64,000 nucleotides of DNA from Nitrospirota bacterium (GTDB lineage: Bacteria; Nitrospirota; Nitrospiria; Nitrospirales; Nitrospiraceae): NCBI GenBank assembly GCA_963701855.1, contig CAVPBK010000005.1, positions 32,001-96,000 on the forward strand. The letters run 5' to 3'. The notes below the pieces were generated by a model. That model did not search any database and was not told the DNA's origin. It saw only the letters and a program-made list of their open reading frames with translations. This document shows, piece by piece, positions 39,670 to 61,088 of this stretch. The translations under genes were made by a program, and so were the position numbers. Position 1 is the stretch's first letter. Every line of letters begins with the position of its first letter.

Positions 39670-40881
39670 CTATGAGTGTTGCTTTGGTACAACTGTTTCT
39701 GCTGCCGTTCCTTCTCCAGTGACGAGGTCGTACCCCGGAGCGGGCGTCACGATGCGTACCTTGGTGTTATCGCGCAATCCGGCGTTCGGGTTGTTCACGA
39801 TGCGGTCGCTCGCGGAAATCCCCTCTGCGACTTCGACGACGTTGCCGAGAAATTTGCTCACGGTGATTGGTTTCAAGTGCACTCGGTCGTCCTCCGCCAC
39901 CACGACCACTTGTGTGCCATGCTCCTGGAACACCAAGGCGGTGGAAGGAATCGTGGTGACTTGCCTATCGACCGGCGCTGTAAGCTGGACCTGGGCATAG
40001 GAGCCGGGCCAGAGTGCTCGGTCTTCATTCTCGATCGTAAACACCGTTACCGCAGTACGCGTGCTCACATCGAACCCACGGGCGACGGTCAGGAAGGTCG
40101 CGGTGAAATGACGATTGGGCAGTTGCGGGACAGTCACGTCGGCCGTCAGGCCCGATTGGAGGAACGGTCCGAACGACTCCGGCACGCTGACGAAGAGGCG
40201 CAGCATATGGACTTCGGCCACCGTAAAGAGGTTGGTCTTCGCATTGGGGGTACTGAGATTGCCTTCCTTACTGACCAAGTCACCAACGTTAATGTTGCGC
40301 TGGGTCACCACCCCGTCGAAGGGCGCCACGATCGTCTTGAACCGAATGAACGCCTCGATGTTCTTGATCTTTTGTTCTGCCGCCCTGACCACCGCTGCCT
40401 GAGCTTTCAGGTTTTGTTCCTGGATCGTGATCGACTGCTCGGAGACCGCATGACTTGAGCGCAACGCCACCCAGCGTCGTGCAGTCACCTCGGTAAGCCG
40501 ATACTTGGCGAGCTCCGTGTCCAGATCCGCCTTGGTCTGCGCATAGTCGGCGTCGAGATCCGGCGCATTGATTTCGGCGAGGACCTCGCCTTTCTTGACC
40601 TGAGCTCCGTAGTCCTTGTACCACATGTTCACATAGCCCGTGACTCGCGCATAGATCGGCGCCTCGAACCAGCCCACGATATTGCCGGGGAGCGTAATGG
40701 TCTCGGTCGGCGCCCCCAGCGTTGGATGGACGACGGCCACGGTGGGGACCGCGTCTTCGAGCGTCTTGTGGAGCAACGCCGTGGCGTCGTCGCCGCTCGC
40801 AAGGATTCGAAGGACGAAATAGAGCACACACAGCAGGATCGCTGAAAGAGCAATGCGTTTTGCTTTGGGTGACTGCATCAT
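39670..40881 (-). CDS. RND periplasmic adaptor (MFP), copy 1
   Basis: Same motifs as copy 2. ATG overlaps the RND stop codon. Confidence 0.92.
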   Translation of the reverse strand: MMQSPKAKRIALSAILLCVLYFVLRILASGDDATALLHKTLEDAVPTVAVVHPTLGAPTETITLPGNIVGWFEAPIYARVTGYVNMWYKDYGAQVKKGEVLAEINAPDLDADYAQTKADLDTELAKYRLTEVTARRWVALRSSHAVSEQSITIQEQNLKAQAAVVRAAEQKIKNIEAFIRFKTIVAPFDGVVTQRNINVGDLVSKEGNLSTPNAKTNLFTVAEVHMLRLFVSVPESFGPFLQSGLTADVTVPQLPNRHFTATFLTVARGFDVSTRTAVTVFTIENEDRALWPGSYAQVQLTAPVDRQVTTIPSTALVFQEHGTQVVVVAEDDRVHLKPITVSKFLGNVVEVAEGISASDRIVNNPNAGLRDNTKVRIVTPAPGYDLVTGEGTAAETVVPKQHS

Positions 40882-42572
40882 GAAGCCTCTCCCTTTTGCC
40901 GAGCGGTTCGCCGGTTGTAAACCAGTGCATACACGCAGGGGACGAAGAACAGGGTGAAGATGGTAGCAACGAGCAAGCCGCCGATGACGGCGCGGCCTAG
41001 CGGCGCATTTTGGGAATAGCCCGTCGCCATGGGGAACATCCCGAAAATCATGGCTAAGGCAGTCATGAGCACCGGGCGGAAGCGAGTCGTTCCGGCTTCG
41101 ATCGCAGCCCGTAGCGCGTCGCCGTGTTCTTGCAGCCGCTCGCGCGCATAGGACACGACGAGGATCGAATTGGCGGTCGCCGTGCCCATGGTCATGATGG
41201 CGCCCGTCAGTGCCGGCTCCGACAGCCGCGTATGGGTCAGGAACAAGGCCCAGGCGATGCCCGCCAGTGCGCCGGGCAGGGCCGTAATGATGATGAAGGG
41301 ATCGAGCCAAGATTGGTAATTGACGGTGATCAGCAGATAGACCAGCACGATCGCGGCAAGCAGTCCTAAAATCAGCTCGGCATACGCATCATACATCAAT
41401 GAGGCCTGGCCATGGATTTCGACCTCCGCACTGCGTGGTTTCTCGCCTTCCATGCTCTTGGCAACCTGCTCGACATCCGCCAGCACCGCGCCGAGGTCGC
41501 GATCTTCAACGGATACATAGATGTCGAACAGCGGCATAATATTCCCGTGCGTGACCACGCCCGGCGTTCCCTCCGGTGTTAGTGTGGCCAAATTGCCGAG
41601 CAACTGGACCTCACCATCCGCCATGTCGTTCGAGGAATCGACCGGGATGGTCTTGAGACTATTGATGCTGTTGATCTGCGACTGCGGTGTATAGACATTG
41701 ATCAGGTACGACATGCCGGTACTGGGATCGAGCCAATAGATTTGATCGACCTGTTGGCTTCCGGCGGTTGTCATGAGAAGATTTTCGGCCATCTCCTTCA
41801 CGGTTCTGTTGACACCGAGTCCGAACGTGCGGTTGCCTTCGACCATGACGGTCGGTGTGCGCATCGTCTGCTGGACCACCACGTCCACGGCGCCGGGGAC
41901 CTGGCGAAACTTGTCGGCCAATTTACGGGCATACTCGTAGCTGGGGTAAATGTCCGGGCCGTTGACCTGCACGTCGATCGGCGCAGGCGCGCCGAAGTTA
42001 AGAATTTTTGCGGTCAGATCGGACGGCTGGAACGTGAATTCGGTTCCCGGATAGCGTTCCTTCAACCCCTGGCGGATAATTTTTCGGAAGTCCCACACCG
42101 GCGATTTTTCATTCTTCAAGAGGATCGTCAGGTCACAATCCTGAGGGCCGATCGTCGGCGTCGGAATGAAAGCGAGGTTATGCGGTCCGACCGGCAGACC
42201 ACAATTGCTGACGATGTTTTCAACTTGACCTGGCAGTAACTCCTCAATGCTTTCGGAGACGAGCGTGGCAATGCGCCCTGACACTTCGATCCGCGTCCCG
42301 AGCGGCGCTCGCATGTGCATCTGAATGACCCCCGACCTGATCTCAGGAAAGTAATCGCGTCCGAGGAAGAAAAAGAGAGACAATGAGGCCAACGCGATGG
42401 CCAGAGAAATCGTGACAAAGATGCCGCGACGGGCGATCGCCTGTTCGAGCAACAGACCATAGCGCTCGCGGATCTGATTGAAGCGGCGTTCGAACCCCTT
42501 CTGAAAGCGGACAAAAGGGTTCCGCGAGGGTTTAGCGCCCGGCTGCTCCTGCTGTTCCTGCGGCTGCGACAT
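40878..42572 (-). CDS. RND (AcrB/CusA superfamily) permease, C-terminal half
   Basis: TM7-12 region: GTATANSILVV, RFRPVLMTA. AGGAG sits just upstream of ATG 42572. Confidence 0.85.
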   Translation of the reverse strand: MSQPQEQQEQPGAKPSRNPFVRFQKGFERRFNQIRERYGLLLEQAIARRGIFVTISLAIALASLSLFFFLGRDYFPEIRSGVIQMHMRAPLGTRIEVSGRIATLVSESIEELLPGQVENIVSNCGLPVGPHNLAFIPTPTIGPQDCDLTILLKNEKSPVWDFRKIIRQGLKERYPGTEFTFQPSDLTAKILNFGAPAPIDVQVNGPDIYPSYEYARKLADKFRQVPGAVDVVVQQTMRTPTVMVEGNRTFGLGVNRTVKEMAENLLMTTAGSQQVDQIYWLDPSTGMSYLINVYTPQSQINSINSLKTIPVDSSNDMADGEVQLLGNLATLTPEGTPGVVTHGNIMPLFDIYVSVEDRDLGAVLADVEQVAKSMEGEKPRSAEVEIHGQASLMYDAYAELILGLLAAIVLVYLLITVNYQSWLDPFIIITALPGALAGIAWALFLTHTRLSEPALTGAIMTMGTATANSILVVSYARERLQEHGDALRAAIEAGTTRFRPVLMTALAMIFGMFPMATGYSQNAPLGRAVIGGLLVATIFTLFFVPCVYALVYNRRTARQKGEAS

Positions 42573-44055
42573 GGTGGCTCCTCATCATATATATCGCCAT
42601 AGTCGGCACCAGCGTACGCGATAGGATGAAAGAGGCAAGCATCGCGATGATGATCGCCTCCGCCATGGGTTTGAACAGGTAGCCGGCGACGCCGCCGAGA
42701 TCGAAGAGCGGGAGCCAGACGACCGCGATGCAGAGGGTGGCGACGAGCGTCGGCACGACGATCTGATTGGCGGCGTCGATGATGGCCTGCTCCAGATCTT
42801 TGCCCATTTCGATGTGGCGGTCGATATTTTCGATCATCACGGTCGCATCATCGACGAGAATGCCGACGGCCAGCGCCAACCCGCCCAAGGTCATGACGTT
42901 GATCGTCTCTCCGAGCAGATGCAGGCCGATGATGGCGGTTAGAATGGACAGCGGGATCGAGGTCCACACGATGACCGTGGCTCTCCAGGAACCGAGCAGC
43001 AATAACACGATGAGGCCGACCAGCGCGCCGGCGGTCAGCATTTCGTGCAGCACGTCCGAGATCGAATCCTTCACGAAGGTCGAGGCGTCGTCAAGGAGCC
43101 TGATCTCCACTCCCTCCGGAGAGATTTGCTTGGCGCGCGGGATCATCTTTTTTATCCCATCGACCACGTCGAGAGTCGAGGCCTCCGTGCTCTTCATCGC
43201 GATGATGATGACGGTCTGTTTCCCTTTCACCAGCACGGCGTTCTGTTGTACCCGGCCCATGAGGCGCACTGTGGCCACGTCGCGCAGGTAGACGAACGCA
43301 TTGCCTTCCCGCTTGATCGGAATATCGTTGAAATGTGCAATGTCCAACGGTGACGCGTTCGTCAGGACCACCCAGTCGGTCTGCTTGATCTTGATGTCGC
43401 CGGACGGCAACACCATATATTGTTTCATGAGGGCATCGTGGATGTCCGACGGGGTGAGATGCCGGGCGAGCAACTTCTGTTGATCGAGGTTGACCATGAC
43501 CTGCATGTCCTGCCCCCCGTATGGATGCGGGAGGACGATCCCCGGTACCGTCACGAGTAGAGGGCGGATTCGCATGTAAGCGAGGTTATAGAGTTCCGCG
43601 GGCGTCATGTGGTCGGAGCTGATTTGGAGCATGGCCACCGGGATAGAAGATGGCGCGAGACGCATGACCATGGGCGGAGAAATATCGGGGGGGAGAGCCT
43701 TGACGACGTTCTGCGCAATGCCCACGATATCCGCTTCGGCTCTGGCCACATCGACTCCGTCCTGGAGATAGATGTTGGTGATGCTGCTGCCGTTGTAGGA
43801 ATGGCTATGGATATATTTGATGCCCTCGACCGTCGAGGTCAAAAAGCGTTCGAATAGATACGTGATGCGCCCTTCCACCTGCTTTGGGATCATGCCGGAA
43901 TAGATCCAGACCACGGAGGTGACCGGAATCGTGATATTCGGAAAGACGTCGGTCGGCATGTGGAGCAACATCTTGGTGCCTAGTATAATAATAAGAATGG
44001 ACATGACGACGAAGGTGTAGGGTCTGCGGAGGGCAATGAGAACGATCTGGTTCAT
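42532..44055 (-). CDS. RND permease, N-terminal half
   Basis: ALRRPYTF, DVFPNI, GILVDDATVMIENI (TM4 DD). Ends after TM6. Confidence 0.88.
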   Translation of the reverse strand: MNQIVLIALRRPYTFVVMSILIIILGTKMLLHMPTDVFPNITIPVTSVVWIYSGMIPKQVEGRITYLFERFLTSTVEGIKYIHSHSYNGSSITNIYLQDGVDVARAEADIVGIAQNVVKALPPDISPPMVMRLAPSSIPVAMLQISSDHMTPAELYNLAYMRIRPLLVTVPGIVLPHPYGGQDMQVMVNLDQQKLLARHLTPSDIHDALMKQYMVLPSGDIKIKQTDWVVLTNASPLDIAHFNDIPIKREGNAFVYLRDVATVRLMGRVQQNAVLVKGKQTVIIIAMKSTEASTLDVVDGIKKMIPRAKQISPEGVEIRLLDDASTFVKDSISDVLHEMLTAGALVGLIVLLLLGSWRATVIVWTSIPLSILTAIIGLHLLGETINVMTLGGLALAVGILVDDATVMIENIDRHIEMGKDLEQAIIDAANQIVVPTLVATLCIAVVWLPLFDLGGVAGYLFKPMAEAIIIAMLASFILSRTLVPTMAIYMMRSHHVAAAGTAGAAGR

Positions 44056-44253
44056 GCGTGAAGACTCCAACAGATTGTGCGATGTTGATTCTCCGAGACG
44101 TAGCTCACTTTCATAAAGCTCAGTTTTGGTTGGATTTTGAGTAGCCTATGCCGCATGCCGACCGGCCAGCCTTCAGCCATTGGGAGTCTGAATCGGATAG
44201 CGGAATAATTTTGAGACGCTAATTTCATGTAACGGATCATGCGCAATATGCCT

Positions 44254-51342: not shown

Positions 51343-52554
51343 TCAGTTCGGAATGAACTTGAAGAGGCCACCGCCTTGAGTCATGACGTAGAGCTCGCCA
51401 TCAGCGTCCTCGCCGAAGCTCGTCACAGAATTGCCCGGCGGACTGAGTAACGGCCATTCTGTCTGCTCTGTGGGCTGGCCATTCTGATAACGGAAGCTCT
51501 TAACAAATCCCGCGCAAAAATCTGCATAGAAGTAAGTGCCTTGCAGCACCGGCATCGCGGATCCTCGGTAGACATACCCACCCGTGACTGCACATGCTCC
51601 GCTCAGGTGGGGATAATCGAGCACCGGCAACGTCAGGCTACCGGAGTTGCAATTCATGGCGGGGTTGAAACACAGAACCCCTTCCATCAACCGCCAACCG
51701 TAATTGGCCTGGCGCCCTGCGTTGGGGGCCACGGCGACATCGATCTCTTCTCTCGCATCCTGCCCCACATCGCCGATGTAGAGGTCGCCTTTTATGCGGT
51801 CAAAGGAGAAACGCCACGGATTCCGTAAGCCCAAACTCCAAATTTGTGGCGCGCCGCCGACGAGAATAAACGGATTAATAATGACCTTGCTGCAGGCCCC
51901 TCCTGTGCTGGGATCGAGCCGAAGGAGTTTCCCGAGCAACGAAGCTAGATTCTGCCCGTTGTTATTTGGGTCGCCGCTATCTCCCCCATCGCCGATCCCG
52001 GCATACAGACACCCATCCGGACCAAATGCCAGCATGCCGCCGTTGTGATTTGAAAAGTTTGGGTGTGCGACTGTCAGAAGCAGCGTACCTGAAGAGGCAT
52101 CGGCAAGGTTTGGGTCCGTGGCATTTCTCAGGTAACGAGCGATGACAATGTCACCAGTGGTGTTCGTGTACAAGATGTAGAATTGGTGATTCGCAGCATA
52201 CTGGGGGTCGAATGCCATCCCCAACAACCCTCGTTCACCACCTGTCGATAGAAGGCTGCTGACATTGAGGAACGCGTCCGCGAGGAGCGAACTGGTTGTG
52301 ACATCGAAAATTCGAATCTGTCCACCCTGCTCGACAATGAAGAGCCGGTTGGTGCCATCGGCAGGCGCGGTCATGAAGACCGGTGAGCTGAGAGTGGTAT
52401 TGATCGGTTGGAGGCGCAGACTAGTGGAATGAGGTAACGGTGCTAACGAGTCTTGGTCCGATCCGTTGCCGGAGCACCCAATCAGGCCTCCTGTACTGAC
52501 AAGGACCAAACCAGTTATCAACAGGAGCTGAATCGGTACCACTAGCCCCCTCAC
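51343..52554 (-). CDS. PQQ-dependent glucose/sorbosone dehydrogenase family lipoprotein
   Basis: Lipobox LIGC, ERGLLGMAFDP, NHNGGMLAFGPDG, GLRNPWRFSFD. Confidence 0.9.
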   Translation of the reverse strand: MRGLVVPIQLLLITGLVLVSTGGLIGCSGNGSDQDSLAPLPHSTSLRLQPINTTLSSPVFMTAPADGTNRLFIVEQGGQIRIFDVTTSSLLADAFLNVSSLLSTGGERGLLGMAFDPQYAANHQFYILYTNTTGDIVIARYLRNATDPNLADASSGTLLLTVAHPNFSNHNGGMLAFGPDGCLYAGIGDGGDSGDPNNNGQNLASLLGKLLRLDPSTGGACSKVIINPFILVGGAPQIWSLGLRNPWRFSFDRIKGDLYIGDVGQDAREEIDVAVAPNAGRQANYGWRLMEGVLCFNPAMNCNSGSLTLPVLDYPHLSGACAVTGGYVYRGSAMPVLQGTYFYADFCAGFVKSFRYQNGQPTEQTEWPLLSPPGNSVTSFGEDADGELYVMTQGGGLFKFIPN

Positions 52555-52737
52555 GTGATGCCAGGCTGTATCTATACGATGAAAAAAACATCAATGCCCC
52601 CTATGAAGATCCCTAGGTGACTGGGTTGCATAAATGATCAAGTGTAATGATCAGGAATGAAATAACCACCGGTCGATGTTTCCGTTGCGTGTGTCATGAA
52701 TCAAGGCGGCGTCACATCAACTGGTTGCCGACCAGAC

Positions 52738-53975
52738 TGGTCGGCCCCCTGATTTTAGGACCAATCTGAGGGAGCGTTTCCGGCATCCTGGCCCCCAGGA
52801 TGGGGAAGGAGGAGGCCATGAAACGGACACGATTCAGTGTCGAGCAGATTGTGGCGGTACTCACGCCGGCGGAGAGGGGACCCCCCGTGGCCGACCGCAT
52901 CCGCCCTCTCGGGATTGCGGAGCAGACGTGCTCCCGGTGGAAGCCGCGGGATGCGGGACTGGAATCGGAACAGGTGCGGGAGTGCAAACCGCTGCAGGAC
53001 GAGAACCCCAAGCTGACGCGCGTGGTGGCGGACTTGTCGTTGGACAAAGTCAGGCTGCAGGACGTCCTCGCAAAACAAGTCTACGGCCCTCGCGGACGCG
53101 GAGTGTGGTGACGTCTCTGTGCCCCGCGTATGCGGTGCGTGAGCGGCGCGCCTGCCGAACCGTCCGCGGTGCGAGGGCCCCCTACGACTATCGGAGTCAG
53201 CGCGATCCCCGCCCCGCACTCCGGCCGCGGCGCAGGGAGATGGCCCAGACGCGGGTCCGGTACGGGTATCGAAACATTCGGGGGCGCCTCAATCGGGACG
53301 GGGGGGCTGTGGGCAAGAAGCTCGGGTCTCGTCTCTCCCGAGAAGAAGGCCTGAGGCTGCGTCGCCGGAGCCCCCGGCGGCGAAAATCGGTGGTGCCCCG
53401 AGTGCACCGGCCGACGGTAACGAGACCGCAGGACGCGTGGCCACGAGACGGTGTGGCGGATCAACTGGTCGAGGGGCGCCGATTTCGCGCCCGCACCGGC
53501 AGCGCTGTGTATACGCGCGAGGGTGTGGCCATTGAGGTGGGCCAGCGTCTTCGCGGCGCGCACGTCGTGGCGGTGTTGACTCGGCGCAACCTCCATCGAG
53601 GCACGCCGAGGAGGCGCTTCTGTGACAACGGGAGTGAGTTCAGGAGTCAGCGAATGGACCGCTGGGCGTATCACAACACGGTCTCCATCGACTGCTCTAG
53701 ACCAGGCACGCCGACGGACCATGCGCACGTGGAATCGTGCCATGCGACGGTGTGACGGGAGGGCCTGAATGCGCACGGGTTCGAGTCACTGCGGGAGGCT
53801 CACGACCGGATCGAGGCCTGGCGGCGTGAGGAGAACGGGAGTCGGCCTCACCGGGCGCTCCAGGCTCGCACGCCCGAGGAATTCGCTAGGGCCCACGCGG
53901 AGAATCAGCGCTGTGAGCCCCGCATCACGGCGGGAAACGCTCCCTAGCAATGGCACAAAATTAAGGAGCCGACCA
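52738..53975 (+). mobile_element. Full-length but heavily mutated IS3-family element
   Basis: IRs TGGTCGGCCCCTGATTTT / AAAATTAAGGAGCCGACCA. Degenerate orfA and orfB, DNGSEF retained, premature TGA at 53753. Confidence 0.92.
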
Positions 53976-54236
53976 AGGCTACGCCTGACTTACATTGCGG
54001 CTGGTACAACTACAGGGGGCAGCGGTTACAAGGGGCTTTCATTGTCTCGTAGGGTAGCTGGAGGTGGTCTAGAGACGATGAACTGGAGATACCCAAAACG
54101 CAATAGCTTACTGCTGACCTTCCGGCTTCTAATCGATTTTGAAGGTTTTCTCTCAGCCTTCTTCAATACGAATGAGGCCAGTCCTCAGGACTGGCCTCAT
54201 CTCTGGGTCTGAACGTCGATCGTCGTATCCTAGGAC

Positions 54237-57962: not shown

Positions 57963-59376
57963 TGGACTGACCCCCTAGATTGAGACACGGCGAATTGGCA
58001 CACTTGACACACGAAAGGGGGTGGCAGGTGGCCAAGAAACGCGTGGGCAAGTTTCCGAAGGCTTTTCGGCAGATGGCCGTCGAGCGACTGAACCAGTGCG
58101 AGAACATCGTGGCACTCGCGAAGGAACTGGGGATCAGTCGGCGACTGCTGTATATGTGGCGCGAGAAGCTTGAGCCGGTGGCGAGTGGCAACGGTCCCCC
58201 AGCGACTTCGCGGGAATCGACCCTGCGTCACGAGGTGAGTCGCCTGAAGCGGGTGTTGGCCGAGAAGGTCTTGGAGGTGGATTTTTCAAAGGGGCCTTGC
58301 ACACCGTCGAGGCGCGACGCCAGCGGAGCGGAAAAGCTGGCGCGCAGGCCTGGACGCCCACATCCGGGACGTGATGTCGAGGCAAGGCTCATTGAGTATC
58401 GCACGGATGTGTCAGCTGGCGCAGGTCAGCCGGGCGGGTTTTTATCGGTCGCTGCACGCACACCAGCCCATGGAAGAAGAGATGGCGGTGCGGTCGGCCA
58501 TTCAGGGGATCGCTGTCACCCACCGGCGTCGGTATGGCTACCGGCGCATCACAGCGGAACTCCGTCGGCGCGGCCTCCTAGTCAACCACAAACGAGTAGT
58601 GCGGCTCATGCGCGAAGACAACCTGCTGGCGGTCCAGCCACGGGCCTTTGTGGTGACGACCGATGCGCAGCATGACCTGGAGGTGTATCTGAATCTCGCC
58701 CATCGACTGACGTTGACCGGGGTCAATCAACTCTGGGTGGCGGACATCACCTACATTCGGTTGAAGGGCGAGTTCGTCTACTTGGCGGTGCTGCTCGATG
58801 CGTATTCCCGCAAGGTCGTGGGCTGGGCGCTGGACCGCACGCTGGCCGCCCGATTGCCGATCGCGGCGCTGGCGCACGCCCTTGCGGAGCGGCACCTGCC
58901 GCCGGGGTTGGTCCATCATTCCGATCGCGGCGTGCAGTATGCCTCCGAGGCGTACGTGACCCTGCTGCGGACGCACCACATGATTCCGAGCATGAGTCGG
59001 CCGGCCAACCCCTATGACAACGCCAGTTGTGAGCGCGTCATGAAGACGCTCAAGTGGGAGGAGATCTATGCCAATACCTATCGAGATCTCGACCACCTGC
59101 GCGCGAACCTTGCGGCGTTTATCGAGCAGTACGACAATCGCGACCGGTTGCATTCGGCGCTGGGCTACCACTCACCGGACGAGTTCGAGCAGGTGGCCAG
59201 TTCGGCGACCCCTGCGACCGGAACCACCATGCGGTTTTTCAGGCCTCGAGCGCTCGCTCGAGCGGCATCATCAGCCAGGGATCAGGCTGAAGCAACAGAG
59301 GCGGGGTGAGCAGCAACATGCATTAAACTACCAGGTGTGCTAATTCCAAACTGTCTCAGTAGAGGGGTTCACCCCA
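57963..59376 (+). mobile_element. IS3-family insertion sequence (orfA from about 58028, orfB 58371-59309)
   Basis: IRs TGGACTGACCCCCTAGATTGAGACA / TGTCTCAGTAGAGGGGTTCACCCCA. WVADITY, HSDRGVQY, DNA..E..MKTLK. Confidence 0.93.
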
Positions 59377-59711
59377 CTTTGCTGTGCTAAATTTGCGCTA
59401 AAAATCTACACAATGGATCGCATTCTACAGAATCAATGGAATGTATAGAATCATCTCAAACCCTTGTTAGCAAAGAAAAAACGGGGAGACCATTTGAAAC
59501 ACCGAGCCTTTTTAAAAACGTCTTGTTGCCATTCCTAAACCGTTTGTCGTACGTTTAATTCGTATCGGGGGTACCAAATCACACCGCTTGTCCCTACTAC
59601 CGTTCTACTCAGGAATAATCGTCCTCTGCTCAGATGACCCACGTGCCTCGGTCTGCTTTCCCATGTTTTCTTGCCACGTTGTGAAGGCTGAGCTAGACTT
59701 TCTCCACACCT

Positions 59712-61088
59712 ATGGCACGAGCAAAAATATCAGAACCGTCTCGCATGCGGTCCAAAGTTGCCACGATTGAAGAACTCACGCGTGGCGTCGGAGAGCTCCA
59801 GGAGTTCCTCGCACAGGTGGAAGACCTTGGTCGTGAGGGATTCCCTTATCTCGACGCAGCCAGGGCCAGAACAGAGCTGCAATTCCGTGAATGCATTCGC
59901 CGCACGTTTGGTGAGAGATCCCCGGAATTCCAAGAGCATCGTCATCACAGGCTTCTCATGGACACCCCTGAGGAAACGCGGCAGAGCATCGCCCTGATCA
60001 AGACGTTTATTGCCACACTGGAACAGAAAAAACTTAACTTGCAAGGAGGCCCACCTCCTCAACAAATCTCAGCAACGCCAGTGGCTCCACCAATGCCTAC
60101 GCGTCCACAGATGACCATAGTGCCGGCATCGATTTCGACGGTTCAGGTGACCATGACGCAAACAGGACCGATTACGCCACCGCCGGTGGCAACGAACCTC
60201 AACCGTGCTCCAGCCACCGCCGCATCGAATCTACCTCAGCCCCCTCTGGCCCCCGCAGTTTCTTTGCAGCAGTCTGAGCCCCTGAGCCCATCTATAACTC
60301 GGTCTGAACCATCACCGATTTCACCAGCCCCGATTGCGACGGCAGTGCCACATGCCCCGCTGCAACCGGTAGATCTAGGTGCTCAGGAGCCCCAGCCACC
60401 GCCAGCACAAGCGGCACAGATTGCGCAGGTAGATGTATCCCATGTCGTTGGGCCACAGCAGACACTACAACCTGAACCGGAGTCCATCGTGCATCCAATT
60501 CCTTCCGTCAGCCAACAGCCTAAGACACAGGAAACGCCTCCCGTCCTTCCGCATCTGCAGCCTCCTTCCTCGATGTCGATCGGCTCCTCTTTTCCCCAGG
60601 AGGCCGCATCGCAGCTTGCTCAGAACGGATCAACCCCTGTCGAACTTGTGAAAACACTCTGTCATCGATTCCACTCCGTTGCCCGGCAGCTGCGACTCCG
60701 CGGGGAGCATCGAGCCACGTTAAGTGTGGAAGACGAGATCGATGTGCAGGATCTGCTGCATGCATTGCTGCGAATCCAGTTTGACGATATCGATACAGAG
60801 GAATGGACGCCGAGTTATGCCGAAGGAGCCCCTCGCACAACATTTCTACTGAACGACAATCAGCTTGCGGTGCTCGTCAAAAAAACGCGAAATGGTCTCA
60901 CAGCCAAAGACCTCACTGAACAATTACGGATCGATACCGAGCGCTATCTCACCAAAAGCCGATGTACGTCGCTCTTGTGCTTTATTTACGACCCCGATGG
61001 CCGCATCGGTAATCCGAGGGCTTTCGAAACCGCGCTCACCACGGTGAACGGTTCCTTGACCATTGGTGTACTGATTGCTCCGAAATGA
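59712..61088 (+). CDS. Protein with a helical N-domain, long Pro/Gln-rich linker and degenerate DpnII/MboI-like PD-(D/E)XK domain
   Basis: C-terminal DVQDLLHALL...FDDI..EEWTPSYA...VKKTR...CFIYDPDGRIGNP. Confidence 0.75.
   Translation: MARAKISEPSRMRSKVATIEELTRGVGELQEFLAQVEDLGREGFPYLDAARARTELQFRECIRRTFGERSPEFQEHRHHRLLMDTPEETRQSIALIKTFIATLEQKKLNLQGGPPPQQISATPVAPPMPTRPQMTIVPASISTVQVTMTQTGPITPPPVATNLNRAPATAASNLPQPPLAPAVSLQQSEPLSPSITRSEPSPISPAPIATAVPHAPLQPVDLGAQEPQPPPAQAAQIAQVDVSHVVGPQQTLQPEPESIVHPIPSVSQQPKTQETPPVLPHLQPPSSMSIGSSFPQEAASQLAQNGSTPVELVKTLCHRFHSVARQLRLRGEHRATLSVEDEIDVQDLLHALLRIQFDDIDTEEWTPSYAEGAPRTTFLLNDNQLAVLVKKTRNGLTAKDLTEQLRIDTERYLTKSRCTSLLCFIYDPDGRIGNPRAFETALTTVNGSLTIGVLIAPK

Follow-up and report, generated by a model that had tools for sequence, protein, structure and literature searches.

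A dead IS3-type insertion sequence of a Nitrospirota bacterium, loaded with A:T>C:G transversions by a process that looks confined to mobile or repeated DNA

Can a bacterial insertion sequence (IS) be ruined by point mutations of a single class, and does whatever causes them spare the ordinary genes nearby? The question is raised by a 64,000-nucleotide stretch of a Nitrospirota soil bacterium (assembly GCA_963701855.1, contig CAVPBK010000005.1, positions 32,001 to 96,000; hereafter the window), in which an IS3-family element, here called IS-A, keeps its outline and is riddled with A>C and T>G changes. An earlier note on this DNA had seen in the pattern either an undescribed process that hypermutates IS or foreign DNA, or a genome-wide bias like that of a mutT mutant. 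We studied IS-A together with its relatives among 85 genomes of the genus, other insertion sequences and ordinary genes. We propose, with moderate confidence, that IS-A is a dead IS3 element loaded with A:T>C:G changes by a process acting on insertion sequences, the favoured cause being the use of oxidised dGTP in error-prone synthesis confined to the element.

That the element belongs to the IS3 family, with both inverted repeats and its frames kept, had already been recognised, and is borne out by its repeats, its protein domains and the IS3 model (Table 1). The ends are of the TG...CA type, with inverted repeats complementary at 84% over 19 nt and at 73% over 37 nt; the orfB remnant matches rve at 34.5 bits and rve_3 at 35.4 bits, and lies in the -1 frame relative to orfA (open frames from 52800 and 52928). 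An orfA/orfB pair joined by a -1 frameshift, the rve DDE domain, TG...CA ends and a length of ~1.2 kb are shared with IS407-like IS3 elements, and IS-A is presumably a member of the IS407 group; the named proteins that it matches are IS3-family transposases of Burkholderia and Pandoraea (~50% identity). Unlike IS407-like elements, this copy is dead, with a broken slippery run, one stop and substituted conserved motifs. The orfB remnant reaches 104.6 bits on the NCBIfam IS3 model, short of the cut-off of 160 that an intact sister (L028) passes with 242.6 bits. The slippery site is AAAAAAA in the relatives L005, L006 and L007 and AAAACAA in the window copy, as the earlier note had read it, and the stop, likewise noticed there, is a C>T transition (CGA>TGA at 53753) private to this copy. 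The GC content is 0.67, against ~0.55 in the flanks and in the whole genome (G000; 4.30 Mb, 15 contigs, 55.6% G+C). When checked for a target-site duplication, the 4-base flanks (AGAC left, AGGC right) agree at 3 of 4 bases; the sequence immediately outside the left end resembles the final 8 bases of the right end plus a 3-bp spacer, and may be a tandem or circle-junction relic of an adjacent older copy. A second copy in the same genome (C6:361910-362872, 98% identity), which retains the C at the stop, breaks off at element position 275, where another IS abuts it (C6:360704-361903). The genome has kept no intact cognate copy.

Full-length relatives of IS-A were found in 7 other genomes of the genus, the relatives being metagenome-derived genomes of uneven quality. 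One of them, L028 of genome G105, has intact orfA and orfB and a GC content of 0.607, and served as sister reference. Against L028 the window copy shows 126 differences over 1238 aligned bases without a single gap, namely 47 T>G and 38 A>C (85 together), 2 C>A/G>T, 26 transitions and 13 others. Changes were then polarised by parsimony on FastTree trees with midpoint or outgroup rooting. Strict parsimony assigned 50 of the 58 private changes of IS-A to A:T>C:G, and a three-taxon comparison with outgroups 71 of 90; Fitch parsimony on the tree likewise found 71 such changes (31 A>C and 40 T>G) among the 90 on the stem that leads to both G000 copies, the remainder being 8 G:C>A:T, 5 A:T>G:C, 4 G:C>C:G, 1 G:C>T:A and 1 A:T>T:A. 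In ordinary genes of the same window the corresponding figure is 20/304 (Fisher p = 1e-41). Of the ancestral A and T in the element, about 12% and 19%, respectively, have been converted, and the predicted dominance of A>C and T>G holds for the raw differences and on the tree, the spectrum being neither balanced nor dominated by transitions. The consensus motifs with which the earlier note had compared the element are nearly all seen in L028, which confirms the changes KQ>TP, EQTFYRWKQRY>EQTCSRWKPRD, LVYRLY>LGSRLS, EGW>DGG, ALTVIDVYTRECV>ARTGSAVYTREGV, ESFN>ESCH and ECLNAHW>EGLNAHG; the exception is GKPTDN, where the sister itself has T in place of K.

The hits fall on all three codon positions (21/124, 34/190 and 10/87 at positions 1, 2 and 3) and are evenly spaced, with 10-14 per 200 bp; A>C and T>G are interleaved, and no strand-coordinated clusters of either were found along IS-A. 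The frames are still open because A>C and T>G are unable to generate TAA, TAG or TGA. Within the part shared by the window and C6 copies, 54 of 57 A:T>C:G hits are common to both, so that most of them predate the duplication and the present sites; the element therefore still moved after it had been mutated, presumably mobilised by a transposase supplied in trans. After the duplication A:T>C:G continued at a lower share, with 2/6 and 5/14 in the two copies.

That sequencing, assembly or repeat polishing produced this pattern is extremely improbable. A/C and G/T miscalls are a classical class of short-read error, one mildly affected IS-A copy (L033) lies at a contig edge, and contig C3 of the assembly opens with a giant inverted duplication, possibly an assembly hairpin. 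Against an artefact, the two G000 copies with their common hits lie on separate contigs, the same substitution class occurs in other IS families of other assemblies, and the sequence is present in metagenomes: some of the 31-mers of positions 52500-54200 occur in 20 soil, rhizosphere or litter runs, drawn from 14 studies (no RNA dataset is among these runs), and contigs, not raw reads, of 4 runs from 4 studies cover mutated IS-A with both flank types at ~97-99% identity, where an unmutated sister would differ at ~1 base in 10. The assembly may itself derive from one of these four runs. A contig of 1234 nt spans the left flank and IS-A up to 53558 with 13 differences, further pieces of 782 nt and 869 nt carry 18 and 21 differences, and others hold the truncated C6-type junction and its flank. 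For the window copy these contigs refute the suspicion, raised in the earlier note, that the variants are consensus artefacts. In 2 runs, moreover, the full-length 5' part of IS-A is joined to a different left flank, a third insertion site; with three flank types, mutated IS-A occupies at least three sites in natural strains. The palindrome on C3 (C3:1-68395 of G000) has arms 17086-34331/34331-51588, 8916-16814/51773-59657 and 1-8621/59773-68395, which are 94.7%, 92.3% and 99.8% alike, and is either real or an artefact of assembly that fused two strains in a hairpin.

The excess is not peculiar to IS-A. When every repeat pair of the genome was screened for strong one-sided A/C+G/T asymmetry, none passed the strict filter; a relaxed list pointed to a second element, IS-B, and this flagged pair prompted us to analyse four further IS families in the same way (Table 1). 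Another pair from the relaxed list, C9:494814 versus C14:74596, was rejected as intact paralogues of differing GC, with no hypermutation. After the two G000 copies of IS-B had split, they gathered 26 versus 8 A:T>C:G changes and 26 versus 31 changes of other kinds (p = 0.005); with the other classes equal, A:T>C:G thus differs between copies of the same age. On the affected stem of the family fam0, codon positions 1-2 account for 19 of the 21 A:T>C:G changes in a looser count by majority rule, whereas the other changes favour position 3. Even the IS branches outside those showing bursts stand at 502/3471 (14.5%), compared with 8-9% in two sets of ordinary genes. The excess recurs in five IS families, four IS3-type and one IS110-type, and in several genomes, and the mutational process behind it looks confined to mobile or repeated DNA.

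Table 1. Features of IS-A in the window and A:T>C:G shares of polarised changes on branches of the five IS families.
Feature	Position	Strand	A:T>C:G	Remarks
IS-A, dead IS3-family insertion sequence	52738..53975	+	~71-85 vs intact relatives	1238 bp, GC 0.67
Left terminal inverted repeat	52738..52784	+		begins TGGTCGGC; repeat pairs found; kept in all relatives
Right terminal inverted repeat	53930..53975	+		final bases GCCGACCA; repeat pairs found; kept in all relatives
orfA remnant	52800..53111	+		HTH_Tnp_1 39.5 bits; frame open, conserved residues substituted
Former slippery run for -1 frameshift	53072..53078	+		AAAACAA; A>C at 53076
orfB remnant	53075..53947	+		rve/rve_3; stop TGA at 53753-53755
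GCCGACCA + GAC	52727..52737	+		immediately 5' of left end; read from sequence
IS-A, L033 (G105)			6/8	sister L028 0/1
IS-A, L004 (G032)			15/41	
IS-A, stem linking L004 to G000 copies			8/12	
IS-A, other branches			2-25%	
IS-B, stem of two G000 copies	C5:19210-20186 and C9:516786-517766		26/32	981 bp, IS3-type; both broken
IS-B, C5 copy			26/52	
IS-B, C9 copy			8/39	
IS-B, L075 (G033)			15/20	broken copy
IS-B, other branches			5-28%	short internal branch N4 6/13
fam0, one stem			19/50	1255 bp, IS3-type
IS-C, G000 branch	57963..59377	+	19/68	second, different IS3-family element in window; mild excess only
IS-C, L102 (G091)			31/72	
IS110-type, two G000 copies			29/69 and 18/67	both broken
IS110-type, L122 (G104)			12/34	broken copy
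IS110-type, copies with long frames			6-31%	

IS-B has perfect TGGACTTCCCAG...CTGGGAAGTCCA ends and a lone orfB-like frame of ~300 aa with no orfA, and yet occurs as a self-contained unit, at differing sites, in 10 or more genomes of the genus. IS-C is followed, 0.3 kb downstream, by an open reading frame (ORF; window 59712-61088, + strand) that encodes a DpnII/MboI-type restriction endonuclease domain (175 bits).

Ordinary and non-mobile DNA of the same genome bears on the other reading of the earlier note, a lineage-wide bias of the mutT (8-oxo-dGTP) type that would become visible only where selection is absent. We compared RND efflux genes of the same window, ~10 kb from IS-A, with those of four congeners and a paralogue. 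Over all branches 93 of 1179 changes were A:T>C:G, and the G000 branch gave the 20/304 cited above. At fourfold degenerate sites, 93 changes on the G000 branch comprised 3 A:T>C:G, 6 A:T>G:C, 40 G:C>A:T, 32 G:C>C:G, 11 G:C>T:A and 1 A:T>T:A, and the ratio of A:T>C:G to A:T>G:C over five terminal branches was 11:19, compared with 71:5 in IS-A (Fisher p = 3e-9). Likewise, 31 of 36 A/T fourfold sites conserved in the four relatives are unchanged in G000. The AcrB-type RND transporter is present as two overlapping ORFs in different frames (N-half ~510 aa, C-half ~565 aa; window 40878-44070, - strand). We tried this split gene as a pseudogene control and rejected it: the split is kept in 3 of the 4 congeners examined (G020, G029, G016) and both halves are under purifying selection, so that it is a conserved split or programmed frameshift and not a pseudogene.

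Beyond the window, an SRAP (abasic-site shielding peptidase)-UmuD-UmuC-like cassette lies near IS fragments (C12:34630-37034; L041:687-3091). Its umuC is split into ORFs of 305 aa and 135 aa in G000 and is also broken in G105 and G030, while it measures 422-449 aa in seven other relatives examined. Over all branches the umuD-umuC cassette shows 129/1480 A:T>C:G, and on the branches with a broken umuC 8/119 (G000), 6/98 and 0/27. Positions with A/T in relatives and C/G in G000 by this class number 352, against 454 in the reverse sense (summed over the best non-paralogous alignment per region). Among the 1708 mismatches of the 34.5-kb inverted duplication on C3 (94.7% identity), 64% are transitions and 20% A/C+G/T, and the A/C+G/T share has a median of 0.23 among 1531 repeat pairs of the genome.

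A global mutator is accordingly improbable as the source of the pattern and is largely refuted, although several features speak for it: A:T>C:G is the class of change caused by MutT deficiency, all codon positions of the dead copies are hit, fourfold third positions in the RND genes (window 39721-44063) are 83% G+C, and a MutY-like ORF has no C-terminal domain. As to the third of these, the substitutions at the same sites are mostly G:C->A:T, and GC-rich fourfold sites with such a flow usually indicate a mutational bias towards AT that selection or biased conversion counteracts. The MutY-like ORF (260 aa; C10:51649-52832, L038:1369-2552) matches positions 2-211 of the 277-position MutY model and overlaps, in another frame, a separate MutT-like Nudix ORF of 157 aa. 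Against the mutator stand the fourfold sites of the G000 branch with their conserved A/T positions, a share of 7% both in whole genes of G000 and in its broken non-mobile gene, the absence of any excess of C/G in G000 over A/T in its relatives, and the transitions that prevail in the duplication on C3. The MutT-like ORF itself is intact, with a canonical Nudix box and a score of 97.9 bits on TIGR00586, exactly the cut-off. Of the signature of MutT loss, the dominance of A:T>C:G is therefore seen (71/90; 85/126), genome-wide action is not, and the gene to be lost is, judging from its sequence, still there.

What could convert A:T to C:G within an element and leave its surroundings alone? 8-oxo-dGTP inserted opposite A classically gives A:T>C:G, and we suggest that this chemistry would act during non-replicative, error-prone DNA synthesis bounded by the element. 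Such synthesis might be primed by recombination between repeated copies, so that homology would limit its extent to the element, or might alternatively be tied to intermediates of transposition; circles are formed by IS3 as well as by IS110 elements. Y-family polymerases are possible executors, and the genome holds a DinB-like gene besides the cassette with the split umuC. When 260 events on 10 branches are summed, A>C and T>G occur at equal frequency (136/2446 and 124/2284), and the effect of sequence context is real but weak: rates are 7.7% after C at -1 versus 3.9-5.8% otherwise, 7.5-7.7% before A/T at +1 versus 4.3-4.9%, and 7.1-7.2% with a purine at -2 versus 3.6-3.9%. Weak context and strand equality argue against a sequence-specific DNA-modifying enzyme and against processes tied to a single strand or to transcription, and the pattern agrees with misincorporation by a polymerase, on both strands and in many events. 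A simple excess of dGTP or dCTP in the pool is excluded by A:T>C:G occurring with almost no A:T>G:C. Abasic-site chemistry is an alternative to oxidised dGTP from which our data cannot separate it; the accessible part of a 2026 preprint ties T>G at CTT in the human signature SBS17 to abasic-site bypass.

Instead of arising as a by-product of synthesis, the hits might be inflicted by the host. It is unlikely, in our judgement, that they record a dedicated defence, a bacterial counterpart of fungal repeat-induced point mutation (RIP), in which the host would recognise an IS by its repetition, its transposition intermediates or a guide and mutate A:T to C:G until the transposase is dead. The restriction of the excess to IS copies of five families, two superfamilies and several genomes would suit such a defence, as would the destruction of conserved transposase motifs, the raised share on unflagged IS branches, and the two 99.3% identical IS-A copies of G105 (L033 and L028), of which one has 6/8 private changes of the class and the other 0/1. 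No candidate defence gene turned up, and no systematic search was made for one; the strong sequence motif that a DNA-acting enzyme might leave is absent, many dead and live IS copies of the same genome are unhit, and mutated IS-A kept spreading to at least three sites and was thus not silenced as a mobile unit. A looser version, a process of these nitrifiers that singles out IS, possibly as a true defence, and inactivates them by A:T>C:G, which would make it a prokaryotic RIP analogue of different chemistry that raises GC, creates no stops and leaves dead but mobilisable shells, we consider rather unlikely.

IS-A could also have been hypermutated elsewhere, as a passenger in a mutT-deficient host or on a replicon copied with many errors, and have entered this genome and moved in trans afterwards. 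The common hits that predate the present sites, the lack of an intact cognate in this genome and the non-orthologous sites of IS lineages in different genomes agree with such a history, as does the small number of other changes between the window copy and L028 (41/1238, ~3%) compared with a divergence of ~15% of ordinary genes from other species, which points to recent horizontal spread. We nevertheless hold a prior mutator host to be doubtful. The excess continues after duplication at separate loci, in IS-A as well as in IS-B, where it is unequal between copies of the same age; separate repeats of this history would be needed for five IS families and at least six genomes; and any intact partner that could have mobilised the dead copy would itself have suffered hypermutation in the same host. 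The proposal that a process hypermutates IS or foreign DNA fits the data, in that the excess is confined to IS copies of five families and several genomes; this process may be a targeted, RIP-like defence or a by-product of repair or recombination on repeats, and the recombination-primed, transposition-linked and defence versions cannot be told apart here.

Several points weigh against element-confined synthesis with oxidised dGTP as the explanation. The steps of this mechanism are deduced and none was observed. The contexts of the IS changes differ from those given for oxidised dGTP in the accessible parts of two reports, a preference of E. coli mutT for 5'-A*A (10.1101/2022.10.21.513255) and, in Pseudomonas aeruginosa, GAC/GTC for Pol IV and GAA/TTC for oxo-dGTP mutagenesis (PMC12318082). 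The flanks of the mutated copies are unpolarised, so that the sharpness of the boundary at the element ends is unmeasured, and although the first 37 and last 36 nt of the window copy are free of hits, sparing of the ends is not significant when IS-A, IS-B and fam0 are pooled (9/185 in the 40-nt ends versus 148/1955, p = 0.24). The pooled share of the burst branches (345/784) is descriptive only, these having been chosen after their shares were seen, and since single branches of ordinary genes reach up to 24%, IS branches at 25-30% are weak evidence. Finally, the neutral controls are imperfect: IS branches of low share are biased to third codon positions, that is, under selection, and the broken non-IS genes may be recently dead, the changes in umuC of G000 being distributed 36:21:8 over codon positions 3:1:2. 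This leaves some room for the alternative that any long-dead DNA would look the same. Other controls were tried and set aside. Dead copies of another IS3-type family in the same genome proved weak, their changes being biased to third positions (60/100; 31/49); 61 GC-rich islands, taken as a proxy for hypermutated DNA, were mostly ordinary IS or tandem repeats and undiagnostic; and a hunt for non-mobile pseudogenes by tblastn of the relatives' ORFs was discarded, antisense and spurious ORFs of GC-rich DNA having overwhelmed it.

The control of bacterial IS is thought to lie in selection, deletion and the regulation of transposition, not in mutation. Our literature search found no description of IS-restricted A:T>C:G hypermutation in prokaryotes. 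A:T>C:G per A:T site, divided by G:C>A:T per G:C site, is ~15 in the IS and 0.36 at fourfold sites, a difference of roughly 40-fold, and a single-signature process that mutates mobile DNA tens of times more heavily than the chromosome would, if true, add a new force to genome evolution. GC-rich 'fossil' transposases whose frames are open but meaningless would find their explanation in it, and it would supply a natural clock or marker of IS death. Should it stem from error-prone synthesis on repeats, it would show where such polymerases act in nature; should it be a defence, it would be one of a new kind. For annotation it carries the warning that long open frames in such elements are no evidence of function. 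All data that we have seen are consistent with mutagenesis aimed at mobile DNA, though they are no proof of a targeted system.

Among known systems, diversity-generating retroelements (DGRs) share with IS-A the localised, class-restricted hypermutation of a defined segment. In a DGR, adenines on one strand of a short variable repeat are replaced by any base, which depends on a template repeat together with a reverse transcriptase. IS-A, by contrast, carries 31 A>C and 40 T>G on the same strand, with only C and G as products, both kinds occur at equal pooled rates, and RVT_1 has no match on the window contig (within the genome it matches only on C14 and C9), which upholds the view of the earlier note that adenine mutagenesis of the DGR type does not fit. 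The genome does hold a group II intron-type reverse transcriptase region in two copies 96.7% alike (C14:114739-117713 and C9:1-2964), one with a 512-aa frame and one broken, whose unpolarised A/C+G/T differences are one-sided, 19 versus 4. With MutT deficiency the pattern shares near-pure A:T>C:G on both strands without indels; unlike it, the pattern is confined to IS copies, ordinary genes and fourfold sites stand at 3-8%, and the MutT-type gene is intact. Another known case is the Pol IV (DinB)-dependent misincorporation of oxidised guanine nucleotides in P. aeruginosa (PMC12318082), which, as far as the accessible part of that report goes, likewise produces locally concentrated, often gene-inactivating A-to-C transversions. 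Its signature is described there from mutT-defective backgrounds, with a 5'G and/or 3'C at the A:T site, near the terminus and rRNA operons, whereas in our data the hits lie in IS copies and few contexts are colder than GTC/GAC (14/421). Fungal RIP, finally, resembles the present case in that point mutations of one class fill repeated or mobile DNA and ruin its genes, whereas genes present in a single copy escape; all affected elements here are or were multi-copy. RIP itself proceeds by C>T transitions that lower GC and create stops, at a stage of the eukaryotic sexual cycle (PMC3318451). In IS-A, unlike in RIP, C>T/G>A accounts for only 8/90 changes on the stem, dependence on repeats is undemonstrated, and the characteristic changes are transversions that raise GC and from which no stops are possible.

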